From Eubacteriales bacterium (GTDB lineage: Bacteria; Bacillota; Clostridia; Oscillospirales; CAG-272): 64,000 bases of DNA. Location: the NCBI GenBank assembly GCA_045602385.1, contig JAZSBL010000042.1:1722-65721 (forward strand). Reading direction: 5' to 3'. Position 1 is the first letter of the stretch, and each line of letters starts with the position of its first letter. A model generated the notes under the pieces. That model was not told the DNA's origin and made no database searches. It worked only from the letters and a program-made list of their open reading frames with translations. The translations under genes were made by a program, and so were the position numbers. This document shows, piece by piece, positions 2,871-9,776 of this stretch.

Positions 2871-4070
2871 ATGAAAAAGATCAGGCTTGGTATAATAGGA
2901 CTTGGAAATATCGGCGCGCAGCATTACCGAAACGTTTTGGACGGAAAATGCCCCGAAATAGACGTAACGGCTGTTTGCGATATTAACCCCGACAGACTCG
3001 GGTGGGTACGCGATACATATGCAGAGTATCATAATGATGATGCGCATATTCCATTTCCCGAAATGTTTTCCAATGCTTCACAAATGATTGCAAGCGGAGC
3101 ATGTGAGGCAGTCATCATTGCAGTTCCGCACTACGATCACCCTCGCTATGCCATCGAGGCATTCAGACATGGGCTTCACGTTATGTGCGAAAAGCCCGCA
3201 GGTGTCTACACCTTGCAGGTAAGGGAAATGATTGCCGAGGCAGACAAGCATCCCGAGCTTAAATTCGGCATGATGTTCAACCAGCGCACCAATTGCGTGT
3301 ATCGCAAGATGAAGGAGATCCTTGACAGCGGCGAGCTTGGAGAAATAAGACGCACCAACTGGATTATAACCAACTGGTACAGGCCCCAGGCTTACTACAA
3401 TTCAAGTGAATGGCGTGCGACCTGGTCAGGAGAGGGCGGAGGAGTGCTGCTCAATCAATGCCCCCACAATCTTGACCTTTGGCAGTGGCTTTGCGGCATG
3501 CCGTCACGCGTATACGCTAAGATCGGCTTCGGTAAATGGCACGACATTGAGGTTGATGATGAAGCATCCGTTATTGTAGAATATCCTAACGGCGCTACCG
3601 GTAGCTTTATAACCTCAACGGCAGATTTTCCGGGCACTAACCGCCTTGAGATAGTCTGCGACCAAGGATCGCTTATTTGCGAGGACAACGTAGTAACAAT
3701 GCATAAGCTTGATGCTTCGGAATCTGCGTTTACAAAAATAAACAAAAGCCCTTATGAAGCTCCCGGTCTTACAACTGTAACGGTTGAGACCGACAATAAA
3801 AATGAGCAGCATCCCGCAGTTCTTAACGCCTTTGCGGCGGCTATCCTACGCGACGAGCCGCTTATAGCCGACGGACGAGAGGGAATTAACGCTCTGCTCA
3901 TCTCCAATGCGATGCATTTGTCCGCATGGACAGGAAGGGAAGTCGAGCTTCCTTTTGACGAGTCATTGTTTAAATCGCTGCTTGACGAGCGAATCAAAAC
4001 GTCAAAGAAAAAAGAAAACACGACCTATATCTTTTCTGAGTTCAACAAGACTCATAAAAGAATTTTATAA
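2871..4070 (+). CDS. Gfo/Idh/MocA oxidoreductase
   Basis: GIIGLGNIG, PHYDH, CEKP, GGGVLLNQCPH. Confidence 0.9.
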   Translation: MKKIRLGIIGLGNIGAQHYRNVLDGKCPEIDVTAVCDINPDRLGWVRDTYAEYHNDDAHIPFPEMFSNASQMIASGACEAVIIAVPHYDHPRYAIEAFRHGLHVMCEKPAGVYTLQVREMIAEADKHPELKFGMMFNQRTNCVYRKMKEILDSGELGEIRRTNWIITNWYRPQAYYNSSEWRATWSGEGGGVLLNQCPHNLDLWQWLCGMPSRVYAKIGFGKWHDIEVDDEASVIVEYPNGATGSFITSTADFPGTNRLEIVCDQGSLICEDNVVTMHKLDASESAFTKINKSPYEAPGLTTVTVETDNKNEQHPAVLNAFAAAILRDEPLIADGREGINALLISNAMHLSAWTGREVELPFDESLFKSLLDERIKTSKKKENTTYIFSEFNKTHKRIL

Positions 4071-4093
4071 TTAATTTTGAGGAGAATCCCACT

Positions 4094-5296
4094 ATGAGAA
4101 AAGTAAAAATGGGCATTATCGGTGTCGGTAACATGGGTGCCAGCCACCTTAACGAGATCATGGCTAACAAGAACCCTGATATCGAGGTAACTGCAATTGC
4201 CGATATAAGCGCAGAAAGACGCGAATGGGCTAAGCAGGCTATTGCTACTGCAAAGGAAAAGTATCCTGAAAGTAACATTGGCGAGATCGCAATTTTCGAG
4301 GACGGTTCCGACCTTATAAAGAGTGGAACATGTGAGGCGATCATTATCGCGGTTCCTCACTACGATCACCCCAGATTTGCCATTGAAGGCTTCCAGAACG
4401 GTCTTCACGTAATGTGCGAAAAGCCTGCGGGCGTTTACACGCTCGACGTAAGAGCAATGAATGAGGAGGCTGCAAAGCATCCTGAGCTTAAGTTCGGTAT
4501 GATGTTCAATCAGAGAACAAATTGCCTCTACAAGAAGATGAAGGAAATTATTTCCAGCGGAGAGCTTGGTGAGATCAGAAGAACAAACTGGATCATTACC
4601 AACTGGTACCGTCCCCAGTCTTACTACGACTCCGGTGCATGGAGAGCAACATGGTCCGGTGAAGGTGGCGGAGTTCTTATGAATCAGGCGCCTCATAACC
4701 TTGACCTCTGGCAGTGGATCTGCGGTATGCCTTCCAAGGTAGACGTTAAGATGCACTTCGGCAAGTGGCACGACATCGAGGTTGAGGACGACGTAACCGC
4801 ATACGTTGAATATCCCAACGGCGCAACCGGTACATTCATCACCACAACAGGTGATGCACCCGGTACAAACCGCTTTGAGATCGTTTGCGACGGCGGTATG
4901 CTTATCTGCGACGGTGTAACTCTTACAATGAAGAAGCTCGACGTGTTTGAGCCTGTATTCACAAAGACATTCAAGGGCGGTATGGGCGGCCCCAACGTAA
5001 CAACATCCAAGGTTGAGGTTGACGGCTCCAATCCTCAGCACCAGGGCGTTCGCGCGGCGTTTGCAGGCGCGATCCTTCGCGGCGAGCCTCTCGTTGCAGA
5101 GGGCTACGAGGGAATAAACGGACTTATGCTTTCCAACGCAATGCATCTTTCCGCTTGGACAAATGCTCCCGTAGAGCTTCCTTTTGACGAAGTTAAGTAC
5201 AAAGAGCTTCTTATGGAGAAGGTTAAGACATCCAGAAGAAAGACAAACGTTTCTGCAGTATTTGTAGAAAACATGGTTGGTACATTTAACGCGTAA
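4094..5296 (+). CDS. Gfo/Idh/MocA oxidoreductase (close paralog of the upstream gene)
   Basis: GIIGVGNMG, CEKP, GGGVLMNQAPH; long peptide stretches identical to 2871-4070. Confidence 0.9.
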   Translation: MRKVKMGIIGVGNMGASHLNEIMANKNPDIEVTAIADISAERREWAKQAIATAKEKYPESNIGEIAIFEDGSDLIKSGTCEAIIIAVPHYDHPRFAIEGFQNGLHVMCEKPAGVYTLDVRAMNEEAAKHPELKFGMMFNQRTNCLYKKMKEIISSGELGEIRRTNWIITNWYRPQSYYDSGAWRATWSGEGGGVLMNQAPHNLDLWQWICGMPSKVDVKMHFGKWHDIEVEDDVTAYVEYPNGATGTFITTTGDAPGTNRFEIVCDGGMLICDGVTLTMKKLDVFEPVFTKTFKGGMGGPNVTTSKVEVDGSNPQHQGVRAAFAGAILRGEPLVAEGYEGINGLMLSNAMHLSAWTNAPVELPFDEVKYKELLMEKVKTSRRKTNVSAVFVENMVGTFNA

Positions 5297-5305
5297 AATC
5301 ACAAA

Positions 5306-5350
5306 ACATAAGGCAAACCTACTAAAAGTAGGTTTGCCGTTATGTATTTT
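5306..5350 (+). terminator. Intrinsic terminator of the sugar operon
   Basis: GGCAAACCTACT/AGTAGGTTTGCC stem followed by a T-rich tail. Confidence 0.75.
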
Positions 5351-5398
5351 ATGAAATGATTGAAATTCAGTCTTTTTCGCTGTTTTTTGCATATTTTT

Positions 5399-5419
5399 AC
5401 CGATATAATTATACAAAAT
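5399..5419 (+). repeat. Left terminal inverted repeat (21 bp)
   Basis: ACCGATATAATTATACAAAAT, exact reverse complement of 7595-7615. Confidence 0.9.
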
Positions 5420-5445
5420 TTCAGTTTAATCTGAATTGCACAATT

Positions 5446-5570
5446 TGCACAGTCTGACATTGGCGCGGAGGACTGTCAGACTGTGCAGAAAGCGCTCCGC
5501 GCAAGGTTGAGAGAGGGCAAAGCGCACCGCAGCTGCAAGCAGCTGCTACTATGCCCGACAAGTCGGGCAT
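5446..5570. other. Hairpin cluster (candidate replication origin or structured ssDNA/RNA)
   Basis: 14-bp stem 5446-5459/5474-5487; GCAGCTGC-AA-GCAGCTGC 5529-5546; ATGCCCGAC-AA-GTCGGGCAT 5551-5570. Confidence 0.6.
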
Positions 5571-5613
5571 TTATCCGTGAAGCCTCATAAAGCAATATAG
5601 CCAACCGAGCAGT

Positions 5614-5658
5614 AAAAAAATATGGGTTTCGCACTTCCGGATGTGGCGAAACCCATAT
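5614..5658 (-). terminator. Intrinsic terminator of the element's rep operon
   Basis: 13-bp stem ATATGGGTTTCGC/GCGAAACCCATAT followed by a T run on the minus strand, just after the stop at 5665. Confidence 0.75.
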
Positions 5659-5664
5659 AAACGG

Positions 5665-5919
5665 TCAACTGCTAATCATCAGTTCGGTTATAGACCTACT
5701 TTCAAGAAAAGCATCAACGCAACATTTAAAACCGAGCCTAAAGGCTTGCTTTTGATATTCCTTGATACAATCAATCAAGGCAGGACAAAAAACATCTCTT
5801 TCCGACTGTTCACAAGGGGCAAGAGCATCAACAAACTCCATATAGCAATCAAGCGTTTTTTCACTCTCAAACGCGCCATCTTCAAACAGTTTTTCAAACA
5901 CAATATCAGCTATAAGCAT
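5665..5919 (-). CDS. Small helical protein of mobile elements (DUF6809-like)
   Basis: GAGGTG RBS then ATG at 5919; C-terminal EYQKQAFRLGFKC motif; third gene of the rep operon. Confidence 0.6.
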   Translation of the reverse strand: MLIADIVFEKLFEDGAFESEKTLDCYMEFVDALAPCEQSERDVFCPALIDCIKEYQKQAFRLGFKCCVDAFLESRSITELMISS

Positions 5920-5932
5920 AAGCACCTCAAAA

Positions 5933-6082
5933 TCAAATAGTTTTTTCTACAAAGACATTACAACGCGGGCAAATAACCCTAACAGTTACGCCATGCGGAA
6001 GAAAAGCGGAATGCCGAAAAAGTAACTTGTTGCAGTTCCAACAACGCAAAGAAACAAATTTATCGACAGAAAAATCACGCAT
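5933..6082 (-). CDS. Mu Com-like zinc-ribbon microprotein (49 aa, not in the ORF track)
   Basis: MRDFSVDKFVSLRCWNCNKLLFRHSAFLPHGVTVRVICPRCNVFVEKTI*; RCxxCNKLL...ICPRC; GGGGGTG RBS; overlaps the rep stop codon. Confidence 0.7.
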   Translation of the reverse strand: MRDFSVDKFVSLRCWNCNKLLFRHSAFLPHGVTVRVICPRCNVFVEKTI

Positions 6083-6968
6083 CTTTAACACCCCCTTTTA
6101 AATATATATCAAAACTCGCGCCGTAGTCCTCAATGCAAGAATTTTGAACGTAAGCAAGAACAGTATTGAAAATCAAAATATCTTGCTTAGTAAAATTCGA
6201 AGAACTGAGAATAATGTCAAGCAAAGAGCGGTCAAAGGACAAGGGGGTGGAAACCCCTGTTTCAAGTCTTTGCTTGGCAATAGCATCGTCAACGTGCCGT
6301 AAGGAAAACAAGCCATCGCGACCAAAATTCAAAAAAAACTCGCGTGGTGTCATTCCGTTAGCGCGCGCATCAAACATAGCCAACGCGCGATTGTTTGAAC
6401 TATCGTTCAGACCATCGGTACGCTCATAGTCAAACCACCAAGATTTATCGTCTGCTATGCGCTCATCTTCCGAATATTGGAATTTGTCAAGATCGTCAAG
6501 GTGACGGAGATACCGCCACGAACCGCAAGTGTCACGCATAATTTCAACGTGCGTTGCTTGGGGCAAGCAATCCCCGAAACGAGTGGCTTTATCAAGGTTA
6601 TCAAAATTCCTCTTAATAGCGCTAGAAGTCTTGGCAGAATATGTATATATAAGAACGTGTGTATGGGGTTCTTTAAGCGTTCCATCGTCCTTTAAGTCCT
6701 TATCATGAAGGCAATATGCCCAATGGTGTACCCAAGGGCAAGAACGCAAAAAACGATTGATTACATCAGAACAAATGTAAGAACGAATATGAAATCGTCA
6801 AGAACGCTCATCTTTGGGGTTTTTTGAGGTTGAAACGAGTTTACCATCTTCATAAATGTAATGTGTCTTTTTGAACTTGCGAGAGGGTTTAACCTCTGCA
6901 TTAGGTGAAATATCACCACTTTCCATTAGTAGAGATTTAGCGTTGCCGATAACATCTGATAGTTCCAT
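6075..6968 (-). pseudogene. rep: Rolling-circle replication initiator (Rep_2/pMV158-type HUH endonuclease) with an in-frame TGA at 6798-6800
   Basis: AAGGCGG RBS and ATG at 6968; one frame reading ...KDERS*RFHIRSY (motif I)...LHDKD...KEPHTHV (HUH motif II)...RYLRHLDDLDKFQY (motif III); the ORF track shows only the downstream 224 aa. Confidence 0.75.
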
Positions 6969-6989
6969 AATAGACCGCCTTATAAAAGA

Positions 6990-7039
6990 TATAGTTAGTT
7001 ATCTAACTATATACCATTATAGTTAGTTATCTAACTATA
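6990..7039. promoter_or_regulatory. Two identical 22-bp palindromic operators between rep and the HTH gene
   Basis: TATAGTTAG-TTAT-CTAACTATA at 6990-7011 and 7018-7039. Confidence 0.75.
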
Positions 7040-7087
7040 AGAGGGCTATATATAAGACTATTTTACAAACACAAGAAAGGAAAGAAA

Positions 7088-7306
7088 ATGTTAAAATGGA
7101 AAATTGAGCCTTTACAAGCATTGAAAGAAAAAGGCTACACAACATACACATTAAGCAAAAACCATATATTGAACGCAGGCACAATACAAAGTTTGAGAGA
7201 AAAACAGCGCATAGGGTGGGAAACGATAGACAAACTCTGCGCACTCTTGGAATGCCAAGTCGGTGACATGTTGGAGTACATACCAGACGAGCAGAATAAC
7301 AATTGA
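7088..7306 (+). CDS. Xre/Cro-C1 family HTH regulator (HTH_26-like)
   Basis: 72 aa; ETIDKLCALLECQVGDMLEY signature; AAAGGAAAG RBS. Confidence 0.85.
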   Translation: MLKWKIEPLQALKEKGYTTYTLSKNHILNAGTIQSLREKQRIGWETIDKLCALLECQVGDMLEYIPDEQNNN

Positions 7307-7369
7307 TATACATTCAAATGGATGTATATATACACTGAAATCAGTGTATAAGAGGGAAAAATAGAGAAG

Positions 7370-7615
7370 AATTATACAAAATCATAAAAAAATTGCACAG
7401 TAGCAAGTGCAACTGTGCAAAATGAGAGAAAGCCGAAGAAAGCCTTACGGCATAAGGGAAAAGGGCTGTTTTCGGGCAAAAGAAAATTGCACAGTAAAAA
7501 CCTTACTGTGCAAAAATATTTGATTGTCCGCTATTACCTCAAATGCAAGGAAAGCCTTACGGCGTAAAGGGTTCATGAATTATACAAAATTTTGATTTTG
7601 TATAATTATATCGGT
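7370..7615. repeat. Modular right-end repeat region, including the right terminal inverted repeat
   Basis: AATTATACAAAAT at 7370 and 7578 and inverted at 7595-7607; TTGCACAGT..ACTGTGCAA at 7393-7420 and 7487-7513; GAAAGCCTTACGGC at 7438 and 7550. Confidence 0.85.
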
Positions 7616-7684
7616 TGATGAATATGTGCCCTTTTTTACGAGATATTACTGTTTTTTGAGTTTTATAACTGTATTTCTCCTTGA

Positions 7685-7948
7685 TTATTTATTGCACAGA
7701 TACTTCTGCTTGGTTGCTTCTCCTCCTCGCAGGTGCCTTTCCTCCTTGTTTTTCTCCAGCACGCTTTTAACGTCCAGATACAAGGATTTATTGACCTTTT
7801 TTAATGACTGAGTTATATCTTTATGTACTGTGCTTTTACTGATCCCAAATCTTAATGCCGTAGCACGTACGGTCGTATTATTTTCTACAATATACAAACC
7901 GAGTACCACGCATCTTTCTTTACCGGATGCTAAATACATCATTGCCAA
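7685..7948 (-). CDS. spoIIID: Sporulation transcription factor SpoIIID
   Basis: YIVENNTTVRATA..FGISKSTVHKD...RHLRGGEATK. Confidence 0.92.
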   Translation of the reverse strand: MAMMYLASGKERCVVLGLYIVENNTTVRATALRFGISKSTVHKDITQSLKKVNKSLYLDVKSVLEKNKEERHLRGGEATKQKYLCNK

Positions 7949-7980
7949 CTACCTCTTTATTCGTTTGAGATTATAATATA

Positions 7981-8008
7981 AATTATGCTCGAACGGACGC
8001 GGTTATGA
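7981..8008 (-). promoter_or_regulatory. sigmaE-like promoter of spoIIID
   Basis: Minus strand tcATA-16 bp-CATAatt; spoIIID is sigmaE-dependent in B. subtilis. Confidence 0.6.
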
Positions 8009-8056
8009 ATGTATTACTGTATCTATACACAATGCTTTTATATTTAGGATCTGGAT

Positions 8057-8848
8057 ATGTTTAATATTGAAAATTTAGCCTTAGAGCTTGATAAATATGA
8101 TGTTTTTGAAGGAATGACCTCTATATCGGCTGTAATAAGATCGGTATCGCAGAATCTTAGCGACCGAAGGATTTTCGCCATTCTCTATGATTCGAAACGT
8201 GAAGATAAAAAAAGCCGTGAGCTTTCCTTTATAAAAAAATGCTCCCATGATTTGTCTTTTGAGGTCGCTTCGGTCTCATCCGAGGTGCTGTCCAACCTTA
8301 CAGCCGGTGAATCACACGGCGGTATCGTCGCAATAACCTCAAAACGCACATTCAATGACAACTTTGTTAAATTATTAACAAATACATCCTTTTATGCCCT
8401 TATAGACGGTATCGAGGATCCCTACAACTTTGCTTATTCGATTCGCTCACTCTATGCAGCCGGAGTTGACGGTATCATTCTTCCTCCGCGAAATTGGATG
8501 GATTATTCGGGTACTGTTGCGCGATCCTCTGCCGGTACGAGCGAGCTTGCAAATATATACGTGTGTGACACTCTTGAAGCGGTAAAACAATTTAAGGAAG
8601 CCGGATTCAAGGTCGTTTGCGCATCCATAAGAGACTCCGTTTCTATTTATGAATACGACTTCACTTCCCCTACTCTGCTCATTGTTGGCGGTGAGAAAAG
8701 AGGTATTTCCAGAAAGCTTTTAGATCTTTCCGATGCCAACGTGAGAATTGAATACGGCAGAGAGTTTATGGGATCTCTTCCCTCTGCCTCTGCAGTTTCG
8801 GTCATTGCGTTTGAGATTGCCCGTCAAAAGGCATCTTTCAACAAATGA
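8057..8848 (+). CDS. TrmH/SpoU-family RNA methyltransferase
   Basis: HGGIVA, IEDPYN, GGEKRGIS SPOUT motifs. Confidence 0.85.
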   Translation: MFNIENLALELDKYDVFEGMTSISAVIRSVSQNLSDRRIFAILYDSKREDKKSRELSFIKKCSHDLSFEVASVSSEVLSNLTAGESHGGIVAITSKRTFNDNFVKLLTNTSFYALIDGIEDPYNFAYSIRSLYAAGVDGIILPPRNWMDYSGTVARSSAGTSELANIYVCDTLEAVKQFKEAGFKVVCASIRDSVSIYEYDFTSPTLLIVGGEKRGISRKLLDLSDANVRIEYGREFMGSLPSASAVSVIAFEIARQKASFNK

Positions 8849-8927
8849 TGTTATATCAAATATTCCGCTATTGAATCATAATCAATAGTATTTATGTAAA
8901 AACAATTGAATCGTATCGAGGAATACC

Positions 8928-9776
8928 ATGAGAAAGAAAATATCCTTTATAGGAGTTGGAAATATGGCATCCGCCATTATTAACGGAATAACAAGCAAGG
9001 ATGAAAATCCTATTTTATGGTCTGACATTCTGCTTTATGACAACAATTTGGGAAAAATGTCGAAATACGCGCTTGAGGGCGCCCAAATAGCGCATAGCCT
9101 GGACGAGGCCGCCTTTTCAGCCGACTGCATTATTCTTTGTGTAAAGCCACAGAATTATGCGGAGGTTCTTCCCGTGCTTTCGGGAGTAGAAGGCATTCAG
9201 GACAAGCTTATTATTTCTATTGCAGCAGGTATTTCAACAGACAGCATTGAGCCGAGTGTTAAAGGTGCGCCCATAGTACGGGTTATGCCCAACACACCTA
9301 TGCTTATAGGTCAAGGGGTGAGCGCGCTTTGCAGAACATCAAAGGTTTCTGACGAGGATTTTGATTTTGCATGCGACATATTTGCTTCGGCGGGCAGAAT
9401 AATCAAAATAACCGAGGATGAGATGAACAAGATCATATGTGTCACAGGCTCTTCGCCTGCATACATATTTATGGTAATAAAAGCTATGCTTGATGCAGCA
9501 GAAAACCAGGGACTTGTAATGGCTGATACGAACCGGGCAAGCCTTGATAAAAAAGAGCTTTTAGATGCTATATGTGATACAGTAATCGGATCTGCAATGC
9601 TTGCTAAATCAAGCAGTAAAACTCTTGACGAGCAAATACAGACAGTTTGCTCCAAGGGTGGCACGACCGAACAGGCCGTGTCAGAGCTTGAAAGGTACAA
9701 AATATTTGAAGCATTTGACAGCGCGATGGCAAAATGTACTGCTCGCGCATACGAGCTTGGAGCAACTAAGAAATAA
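8928..9776 (+). CDS. proC: Pyrroline-5-carboxylate reductase
   Basis: FIGVGNMA, CVKPQ, RVMPNTP, TGSSPAY, VCSKGGTT. Confidence 0.92.
   Translation: MRKKISFIGVGNMASAIINGITSKDENPILWSDILLYDNNLGKMSKYALEGAQIAHSLDEAAFSADCIILCVKPQNYAEVLPVLSGVEGIQDKLIISIAAGISTDSIEPSVKGAPIVRVMPNTPMLIGQGVSALCRTSKVSDEDFDFACDIFASAGRIIKITEDEMNKIICVTGSSPAYIFMVIKAMLDAAENQGLVMADTNRASLDKKELLDAICDTVIGSAMLAKSSSKTLDEQIQTVCSKGGTTEQAVSELERYKIFEAFDSAMAKCTARAYELGATKK

Follow-up and report, generated by a model that had tools for sequence, protein, structure and literature searches.

The window, by which we mean the whole 64,000-nt stretch of DNA that was analyzed, carries a compact module between a Gfo/Idh/MocA gene that ends at 5296 and spoIIID (7685-7948, minus strand; PF12116, E 3.2e-33). 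The gene content put forward in a preliminary description of this DNA, namely rep, a Com-like zinc ribbon, a small helical protein, a divergent Xre HTH, and a terminator, is borne out by the ORF list and by Pfam, which for the five plausible ORFs gave matches to Rep_OBD, to HTH_26, and, weakly, to a zinc ribbon, and no others (Table 1). No recombinase, relaxase, or capsid gene had been reported, and we found none among the ORFs of at least 35 aa in 5399-7615, nor any morphogenesis ATPase (pI/Zot), coat, or adsorption gene among the ORFs of the element. The element occurs once in the 1.71 Mb of host genome, and its DNA gave no match in phage or plasmid collections; the 22-nt candidate operator sequence had no exact match in viral contigs. 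A homologue search with the 86-aa protein retrieved three proteins, including the window's own entry, an atlas feature search returned unnamed phage or Bacillota clusters only (top score 0.91), and the structure model, made with three sequences as input, was poor (mean pLDDT 63.2, pTM 0.42).

Table 1. Features of the element and its junctions (positions in the window)
Feature	Position	Strand	Remarks
Left arm of 21-nt inverted repeat	5399-5419		8 nt of host flank ACCGATAT plus 13-nt dif arm
Left copy of 15-nt direct repeat AATTATACAAAATTT, crossover core	5407-5421	+	all 15 letters match on either side of the 7577→5407 joint
Mobile unit, 2171 bp, GC 0.40	5407-7577		self-closing joint in metagenome contigs
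attL hybrid site	5408-5435	+	ATTATACAAAA TTTCAG TTTAATCTGAA
14-bp-stem hairpin	5446-5487		z -5.9; first of three with TTGCACAGT...ACTGTGCAA stems; candidate origin or single-strand-origin structures
Terminator-like hairpin and T-run	5620-5658	-	behind the rep operon
86-aa acidic helical protein	5665-5925	-	no family
52-aa Com-like zinc-ribbon protein	5933-6091	-	overlaps rep end; PF10122 E 0.0037, below cut-off; phrog_13819 gpCom E 1.3e-6
rep, HUH rolling-circle initiator (Rep_OBD)	6075-6968	-	297 codons with one in-frame TGA
Premature TGA in rep, codon 57	6798-6800	-	Arg (SRRF) in homologues; CGA in circular copy (6800 A>G in metagenome run X1)
Two identical 22-bp palindromes TATAGTTAGTTATCTAACTATA, candidate operators	6990-7039		in the gap from which rep and xre diverge
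72-aa Xre/Cro-type HTH protein, candidate repressor	7088-7306	+	HTH_26, PF13443, E 7e-12
Internal third dif-arm copy, then TCATAA (site at 7371)	7370-7382	+	possible second attP
Two ~100-nt units, each with TTGCACAGT hairpin (7393-7420, 7487-7513) and AAAGCCTTACGGC box	7383-7577		z -6.75
Right copy of 15-nt direct repeat AATTATACAAAATTT	7578-7592	+	
attR, complete host dif	7579-7606		ATTATACAAAA TTTTGA TTTTGTATAAT
Right arm of 21-nt inverted repeat	7595-7615		dif arm, then host flank ATATCGGT (8 nt)

The Rep_OBD match comes from the ORF at 6075-6749 (minus strand), which aligns to positions 31-111 of the 121 in PF01719 (E 7.6e-11, 42.7 bits, cut-off 24.6), and rep extends beyond this ORF, from 6968 down to 6075. 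A frameshift near 6780-6827 was considered and rejected, as the homologue alignment shows one frame throughout with a single TGA. All 16 sequences compared have H29 and H31 (PHTHVLIY) as well as R79-Y80-L81-H83, and Y80 is, by analogy with the family, the putative catalytic tyrosine. Searched against solved structures as a single protein and as a profile, Rep matched no Rep structure, the best matches being unrelated (E 0.00028 and 0.24), and a Rep scan of viral contigs gave three distant loci, without dif arms. The motif TACTACGAC, presumably the pMV158 nick site, lies in a G+C-rich hairpin loop in two loci discussed below (L102 and L097); it is absent from L113, the relative in a sister species, and the only similar sequence in the window is TACTATG at 5547, on the opposite strand and at chance level. 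With its nonsense codon, the window copy lacks a full-length open rep and probably cannot replicate, barring readthrough of the TGA.

We then turned to the repeats that bound the module. The perfect 21-nt inverted repeat ACCGATATAATTATACAAAAT of the preliminary description is real, its arms being 100% complementary and 2175 nt apart; in 200 mononucleotide shuffles of 4000-9500, a crude test, no inverted repeat of 21 nt arose (longest 19). Its right arm also pairs locally, as one half of a 30-bp hairpin (7578-7590 with 7595-7607). A search for this 30-bp palindrome as AATTATACAAAAT-N4-ATTTTGTATAATT, with up to two mismatches, found it in 68 genomes among the 201 of the order, in single copy in 65 of these and in double copy in 3, and the backwards control pattern gave no match in the same search. 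The palindrome arms covary among the genomes of the order, and the four central bases vary. In two closed relatives (G033 and G063, respectively), the palindrome is found at 0.514 and 0.511 of the contig, opposite dnaA (at 325 and 664), and the GC skew switches from plus to minus exactly there (+0.088 to -0.092 and +0.004 to -0.047). The single copy, the position opposite dnaA, and the skew switch together identify this palindrome as the chromosomal dif site of the host.

An Xer orthologue lies 7.9 kb from dif in G033, 6.5 kb in G063, and 0.6 kb in L102. The host genome (G000) has one XerC/XerD-like gene, on contig C23 and coding for 344 aa, which scores 216 bits against XerC and 197 bits against XerD, both below the equivalog cut-offs; as a second tyrosine recombinase gene adjoins xer in G033 and G063, either one or two recombinases may act. 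A dif half-site upstream of xer was examined as an autoregulatory feature and discarded: the exact arm occurs in G000 and G003, and none was found in G018, G009, G033, or G063. Extra single dif arms are also seen near dif in L023, L025, L029, and L030 and were considered as further small inserts; that of L029 falls inside the spoU gene and is a chance match.

The uninterrupted palindrome stands beside spoIIID in 16 of 19 relatives' loci, and, read in the same orientation, most relatives' loci within the genus have a site with exactly the attR sequence. By comparison with dif, attL has a perfect arm, 3 of the 6 central bases, and 6 of 11 positions of the second arm. Both window junctions lack the C-rich flank with which dif is associated in 38-43 of 45 relatives' loci. 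The preliminary description had noted no evident target-site duplication; there is in fact a perfect 15-nt direct repeat (one dif arm plus TTT), and it is this repeat that forms the true boundaries of the element. The "terminal inverted repeats" are not element ends: their inner 13 bp are host dif arms split by the insertion, and their outer 8 bp are host flank, outside the 2171-bp self-closing unit. It had been proposed that an empty site already holding both inverted repeats would refute the element as first described, and such is the case for the inner 13 of 21 bp in those 16 of 19 loci. A Rep_2-driven transposon bounded by the 21-bp repeats, the second alternative of that description, was suggested by a perfect inverted repeat placed around a rep gene, and we now regard it as almost certainly wrong, since the inner arms pre-exist at the empty site and since, of the two flanking arms, a single one belongs to the self-closing unit, from which the outer 8 bp are absent altogether. 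Moreover, the element is single-copy in its genome, it and two close relatives are at dif, and the family is found at dif whenever the context is visible; neither element-specific ends nor copies at unrelated loci, as would be expected of IS91, ISCR, or Helitron-like elements, were found.

A search for circle junctions, which had been recommended, was positive in public gut metagenomes. A 2200-nt contig of run X1 matches 7107-7577 and then 5407-7136, such that its joint goes back 2171, and the 7577→5407 joint is present in contigs of two runs (X1 and X2) of one study, at ~98% identity. The same 2171 bp thus occurs closed on itself, at a circle or a tandem junction, as a tandem array could look circular. 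In X1, rep is open as far as the listed differences go. The circle joint rebuilds from the attL hybrid a dif-like attP, which matches dif in one arm and in some of the central bases. None of the metagenome contigs compared bridged attL or attR, and the integrated state of the window element is documented by one MAG contig. In two further runs (X3 and X4), the flanks were matched at 0-3 differences with an element interior depth of 0, and the X3 flanks run into other sequence; no 5421→7593 joint is listed for either run, the unitigs breaking at the shared palindrome. The absence of the flanks in X1 is a hole in the contig data and carries no weight.

These data bear on the possibility that the assembly falsely joined a free plasmid to the chromosome through the 15-mer that they share, given that a false join through a shared core gives identical junction sequences and that no independent contig crosses the junctions. 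Common metagenome assemblers, however, use word sizes larger than 15 bp, and independent assemblies join three relatives of the element (L113, G002, and L102) to host flank at dif, which makes such a chimera extremely improbable.

The first of these relatives, L113, is 68.8% identical to the element over 1349 nt, encodes an intact 301-aa Rep, and keeps the same order of rep, zinc-ribbon, and 86-aa genes right up to the junction. It ends with an arm followed by TCTGGG and TTTTGTAAGAA, and the flank beyond matches that of the uninterrupted dif of G003 at 94.5% identity over 127 nt. L113 comes from a sister species, in which it occupies the corresponding position; the reference genome of that species has the empty dif. 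G002 has a decayed relative beside dif, with several stops. In L102, another Clostridia genome, a 5-kb prophage encoding a Zot-like protein (phrog_197, E 5.6e-8), Xre, and Rep, with no integrase ORF, is inserted with a copy of the arm on one side and a full dif on the other, all 6 central bases being common to dif; its Rep is distantly related (Rep_2-type, 34-36% identity), and its origin hairpin is different. L097 was rejected as a second clean example, as it encodes its own 203-aa tyrosine-recombinase-like ORF in spite of having the same geometry. Location at dif is consequently no proof, in itself, of Xer use.

The element could conceivably be the immobile deletion derivative of a dif-integrated filamentous prophage, of which only the replication and regulation module was kept. 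The premature TGA in the window rep, the lack of structural genes, the decayed G002 copy, and the occurrence of Rep relatives in Zot-encoding genomes of 5-6 kb all fit such a dead remnant, and the window copy itself may be dead. However, the self-closing form with an open rep was recovered from two runs, L113 retains the gene order of the element up to its junction, and two of the closest Rep homologues sit on contigs of only 2036 and 1858 nt, so that the small form looks like the propagating unit and we consider a remnant unlikely.

Elements that lack a recombinase and are integrated at dif by that of their host are named IMEX, for integrative mobile element exploiting Xer. The element studied here is integrated at dif, encodes no recombinase of its own, and has a dif-like attP, and in these respects fits an IMEX. 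We conclude with good confidence that it is a 2171-bp circular rolling-circle mini-replicon that entered dif, most likely via the host Xer machinery. The absence of a recombinase and the precise position at dif agree with the first alternative of the preliminary description, a non-autonomous mini-element moved in trans by a host recombinase.

Based on these observations, we propose the following model. Besides rep and a gene for an Xre-type regulator, the element has two small ORFs and a structured non-coding stretch. Its free form would be copied by Rep-driven rolling-circle replication, and the Xre protein would repress at the two 22-bp palindromes. Insertion was by site-specific recombination between the chromosomal dif and the dif-mimicking attP, most likely catalyzed by the host Xer tyrosine recombinase. 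The crossover lies within the 15 bp of identity; a full dif is regenerated on the right, and an arm followed by element sequence remains on the left. With matches at just 3 of the 6 central bases and a degenerate second arm, strand exchange probably takes place only on the perfect-arm side. Integration might instead have been carried out by the HUH Rep of the element, since HUH enzymes are able to join DNA site-specifically, or by homologous recombination over the 15-bp identity. We judge this very unlikely, given that the target is the recombinase-binding palindrome itself, that the element site mirrors the arm-spacer-arm layout of dif, that L102 reached the same target with a divergent Rep and another origin hairpin, and that no sequence resembling a Rep nick site is common to the element and dif.

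As for the spread of the replicon, packaging by a helper filamentous phage is our leading guess. In Vibrio, RS1 and TLC live as satellites of filamentous phage, and the element is possibly a satellite of clostridial filamentous phages. A bolder and rather doubtful version would be that elements of this kind are the first recognized ~2.2-kb Rep-only satellites of such phages, hijacking a symmetric-arm Xer/dif system. Two arm-plus-spacer sites (the TTTCAG junction and TCATAA at 7371) would then let the element enter either side of an identical-arm dif, and the zinc ribbon or the acidic 86-aa protein would serve as an FtsK-independent Xer activator or as a helper-phage anti-repressor.

The kind of element is already known, while its host group and Rep lineage appear to be new. 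According to a review (PMC5357621), Xer-borrowing elements are best known from Vibrio, Neisseria, and Enterobacter, where they shape virulence and the order of phage entry. The present finding would extend Xer borrowing to spore-forming gut Clostridia and to a pMV158-type Rep lineage, and it supplies a defined attP/dif pair in a case where both dif arms are the same. In gut anaerobes, it points to dif as a site where small replicons and filamentous phages land, and as a place to seek "integrase-less" prophages. In addition, dif and its linked xer gene are now defined for a large, mostly uncultured order, which helps to find replication termini in fragmented genomes.

The closest known systems are the IMEX of Vibrio cholerae (RS1 and TLC-phi, and phages of the CTX-phi and VGJ-phi types), described among others in the same review (PMC5357621). 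Like them, the element has no integrase and resides at chromosomal dif; its attP mimics dif through one good arm, partial central identity, and a degenerate second arm, and a functional-looking dif is regenerated on one side. Like the satellites among them, it combines a divergent repressor, a rolling-circle Rep, and small ORFs with no structural genes, although dependence on a helper is only proposed here. It differs in its host, a spore-forming gut Clostridia bacterium, in its smaller size (2.17 kb), and in its Rep, which is of the Rep_OBD/pMV158 kind, with no relation to RstA or Cri implied. The host dif differs from that of Vibrio in having two identical arms, and the host genome shows a single XerC/XerD-like gene. 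In the gonococcal genetic island, as described in the same review (PMC5357621), a good dif lies at one end and a degenerate dif-like site at the other, the latter with a conserved XerC arm and central region and a divergent XerD arm. The element shares this layout of a good site on one side and a degenerate one on the other, but the island, conjugative and 57 kb long, is of another kind than a small replicon.

With pMV158-family plasmids, the element has in common a small circular replicon and a Rep above the PF01719 gathering cut-off, the closest plasmid matches coming from Mycoplasma, Lactobacillaceae, and Enterococcus (plasmids of 1.6-3.4 kb, with 30-42% identity across part of Rep). Unlike these plasmids, it integrates at dif, its Rep has ~70 extra N-terminal residues and a long C-terminal part, and it lacks the nick motif of L102 and L097. 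In the phage collection, all 29 matches to Rep are 4-6-kb gut filamentous phage records (31-41% identity among the 15 listed), annotated as Inoviridae "bajarodino virus," "Inovirus sp.," "Dulem virus," and Enterocloster inoviruses, one Rep-matching record, a circle of 6113 bp, encoding a repressor in addition to Zot and Rep. The contigs of Rep homologues P0002-P0011 measure 2.0-7.3 kb. The Enterocloster inovirus paper (PMC10061712) gives direct repeats at the prophage ends, and the word Xer does not occur in it. Compared with these gut phages, the element is without Zot/pI, coat, and adsorption genes, and the L102 prophage is such a phage at this kind of dif.

Between its perfect 21-nt inverted repeats, of a length (at least 21 nt) that arose in none of 200 shuffles of the region (longest, 19 nt), the element carries the genes that the preliminary description had listed, and among its ORFs we likewise found no recombinase, relaxase or structural gene. 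That description had, however, reported no evident target-site duplication and missed a perfect 15-nt direct repeat, AATTATACAAAATTT. It had also overlooked that the right arm of the inverted repeat is half of a local 30-bp hairpin, and that rep contains a single in-frame TGA, at a position where all fetched homologues have the Arg of an SRRF motif. Directly upstream of the site is a tandem pair of paralogous oxidoreductase genes of the Gfo/Idh/MocA type.

Features of the element and its surroundings (window positions)
Feature	Position	Strand	Remark
Oxidoreductase paralogue 1	2871-4070		399 aa
Oxidoreductase paralogue 2	4094-5296		400 aa
Inverted repeat	5399-5419 / 7595-7615
Direct repeat	5407-5421 / 7578-7592
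Mobile unit	5407-7577		2171 bp
Left junction	5408-5435
Right junction	7579-7606
Local hairpin	7578-7607
Species-specific flank, ACCGATAT/ATATCGGT	5392-5406 and 7608-7615
Rep_OBD (PF01719) protein		minus	between inverted-repeat arms
rep start	6968
In-frame TGA of rep	6798-6800
Com-like zinc ribbon		minus	between inverted-repeat arms
86-aa orphan protein		minus	between inverted-repeat arms
Hairpin with T-run			after minus-strand genes
Xre/Cro-type HTH gene			divergent from minus-strand genes
Internal second arm	7370-7382		spacer TCATAA
Non-coding part of circle	7307 through joint to 5664

We searched the flanks of the element in 40 relatives and fetched 19 loci. In 16 of these, an unbroken palindrome, AATTATACAAAAT-TTTG/CAAA-ATTTTGTATAATT, lies beside spoIIID and is 100% identical throughout, whereas spoIIID itself is 67-84% identical and the flanks are unrelated. 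Allowing up to two mismatches, the pattern occurs in 68 of 201 genomes of the order (once in 65, twice in 3), with 0 matches for a backwards control pattern. Its arms covary (AATTAAAC...GTTTAATT, AACTATAC...GTATAGTT), and the four bases at the centre are free to vary. In two closed genomes with dnaA at the contig start, the site is at 1,145,997 of 2,229,578 (0.514; G033) and 1,538,858 of 3,008,576 (0.511; G063). GC skew in 10-kb bins switches sign exactly there, from +0.088 to -0.092 and from +0.004 to -0.047, respectively, with signs consistent in almost all bins across 100 kb on each side. Given its single copy, covarying arms, mid-chromosome place and skew switch, the palindrome is by its signature the chromosomal dif, and a single-copy site at the skew switch could be used for finding termini in fragmented genomes. 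Read as 11-6-11, dif is ATTATACAAAA TnnnnA TTTTGTATAAT, its arm agreeing at 8 of 11 positions with what we take to be the XerD arms of E. coli and B. subtilis dif. In the class, 76 of the 301 genomes sampled have the pattern, and 4 have a match to the control pattern.

The dif of the order and of many other Clostridia is a palindrome of 30 bp whose two arms are identical and whose 4-nt centre is free to vary. A C-rich flank usually lies on one side and reads CCC at positions -5 to -3 in 38-43 of the 45 loci, these having been oriented by that same feature. In the window, the 8 outermost bp of each inverted-repeat arm (ACCGATAT/ATATCGGT) are species-specific host sequence and stand in place of the C-rich flank that otherwise accompanies one dif arm across the order. 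Farther left, GCTGTTTTTTGC still matches the C-rich-side flank of one fetched locus (L026); template switching within the palindrome is one possibility for the replacement.

At the right junction of the element there is a complete dif that, after like orientation, does not differ from the site in most loci of the genus. The left junction has a perfect arm, the centre TTTCAG (sharing TTT with the TTTTGA of dif) and a second arm matching at 6 of 11 positions. The circle junction for which a search had been proposed was found in public gut-metagenome data. In one run (X1), a 2200-nt contig of depth 13.1 matches 7107-7577 and then 5407-7136, thus going back 2171 nt at a joint where 15 letters fit either side, with a 30-nt overlap between the contig's ends; a second run of the same study (X2) has the identical joint in a 340-nt contig. 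The contig represents a circle or a head-to-tail tandem, two forms that contigs cannot separate. These joints define the mobile unit. Of the two flanking arms it contains only one, in addition to the internal copy at 7370. The 21-bp repeats are consequently not its ends, as had been supposed: their outer 8 bp lie wholly outside the unit and only one flanking arm lies inside. The X1 copy and the window differ at 39 positions. Of the 35 listed, 20 lie within 6753-6843, a 91-nt stretch of rep that, from its sequence, resembles a patch acquired by recombination with a diverged relative. At 6800 an A>G change replaces TGA with CGA; once the listed differences are introduced, rep is free of internal stops, and 14 of its 23 differences are silent. 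The integrated form of this exact element is known from the source assembly alone. In another run (X3), the flanks (5000-5421 and 7577-8000) are present with 0-1 differences and the element's interior is absent; since on either side of dif these flanks pass into other sequence ('...AGCACCCCA' precedes the arm), that strain may carry a different insert.

The Rep family is rare: 6 of the 401 genomes sampled from the order and 2 of 39 from the genus carry it, the host being counted in both. Close relatives of the element lie at dif wherever the context is visible. A 1657-nt metagenome contig (L113), 68.8% identical to the element over 1349 nt, has the zinc ribbon and the 86-aa gene in common with it and carries an intact 301-aa Rep. 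The contig ends in ATTATACAAAA TCTGGG TTTTGTAAGAA followed by a flank that matches the one beside the unbroken dif of genome G003, ATTATACAAAA TCAAAA TTTTGTATAAT, at 94.5% identity over 127 nt, without any difference in the nearest 45 nt; judged by sequence, the two are an occupied/empty pair in a sister species. Genome G002 has a decayed Rep fragment with stops and a dif flank 88% identical to the element's end. In a Clostridiales MAG (L102, 5277-10310), a 5-kb stretch has an arm copy on one side and a full dif on the other, the two sites agreeing at all six central bases. It encodes Xre, a distant Rep (Rep_2), a 107-aa coat-like protein with a signal peptide, a secreted protein of 402 aa and a Zot-like ATPase (phrog_197, E 5.6e-8). 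No integrase ORF was found in this insert, a complete-looking integrase-less prophage. The 29 phage-collection records that match Rep all belong to filamentous phages and are 4-6 kb long (31-41% identity for the 15 listed); one of them, a circle of 6113 bp, encodes Zot, Rep and a repressor. The best plasmid-collection matches are plasmids of 1.6-3.4 kb. The longest contigs of the closest Rep homologues form two size groups, about 1.4-2.5 kb and 4.6-7.3 kb, with one of 17 kb.

Another Clostridia MAG (L097, 4828-7830) has a 3-kb element with Rep_2 between arm and dif, beside spoIIID, and a direct repeat, at least 33 nt long, that comprises 20 flanking nucleotides, the arm and TG. We rejected it as evidence for Xer use since it encodes a 203-aa tyrosine-recombinase-like ORF. 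Further arm-like sites in L097, at 1980 and 3847, lie within or beside ordinary host-like ORFs (437 and 264 aa). A 5427-nt metagenome contig (L118) encodes Rep_2, Mob_Pre, a Replicase/PriCT protein and MobA/MobL and has three copies of a variant arm, ATTAAACAAAA, which could be Xer sites of a plasmid or have arisen by chance. A 5331-bp circle is probably delimited by the copies at 82 and 5413.

The host genome encodes a single XerC/XerD-like protein of 344 aa, whose scores of 216 and 197 bits fall under the equivalog cut-offs. Its orthologue is the sole strong match in G033 and G063, 7.9 kb and 6.5 kb from dif, respectively, and lies 0.6 kb (576 nt) beyond dif in L102. A second tyrosine recombinase gene is convergent to xer in G033 (C1:1153901-1156601) and G063 (C1:1545357-1547243), 6-10 kb from dif. 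The stretch fetched around the host xer shows no such neighbour, so the order may include both one- and two-recombinase forms of the dif system. On host contig C23 (L081:2449-2500), an exact copy of the dif arm stands 14 nt ahead of the xer start codon and immediately follows a TGTATAAT box, a hint of xer autoregulation; the arm is also upstream of xer in G003 and absent there in G018, G009, G033 and G063 (L196-L200).

Based on these features, we propose that in the free form Rep, whose H-x-H and R-Y-L-x-H residues are invariant, would nick an origin in the non-coding part of the circle. This part holds three hairpins with a common stem (TTGCACAGT/ACTGTGCAA) and repeated AAAGCCTTACGGC boxes, and as single-stranded DNA folds far better than shuffles (z -6.75, -5.9); the nick motif TACTACGAC, present in a hairpin loop of L102 and L097, was not found in the window element. 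Two identical 22-bp palindromes between the divergent rep and xre starts are obvious candidate operators for the Xre protein. Host Xer would bind dif and the arm-spacer-arm site of the element and, the match being limited to the arm and the first three central bases, would exchange one pair of strands on the perfect-arm side, the junction presumably being resolved by replication, as described for CTX-phi-type elements (PMC5357621). The L102 phage, with its fully matching spacer, would be of the reversible type. The spacer of the internal arm shares TCA with the opposite reading of dif (TCAAAA), and this arm may, speculatively, permit entry from the other side. No gene or feature of the element accounts for transfer, and our best guess is that a helper filamentous phage spreads it.

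Literature searches on IMEX, Xer and dif and on the arm sequences retrieved no description of Xer-exploiting elements from Clostridia. Neither 'Xer' nor 'dif site' occurs in the main text of Roux et al. 2019 (PMC6813254), and 'Xer' is absent from the accessible portion of the Enterocloster inovirus paper (PMC10061712). Kono et al. 2011 (PMC3025954) predicted dif in 97 of 100 Firmicutes, and the site itself may already be on record in their supplementary lists. [quoted passage not shown] The element is of a well-known kind, and what appears new is its host group, Rep lineage, very small size and symmetric dif.
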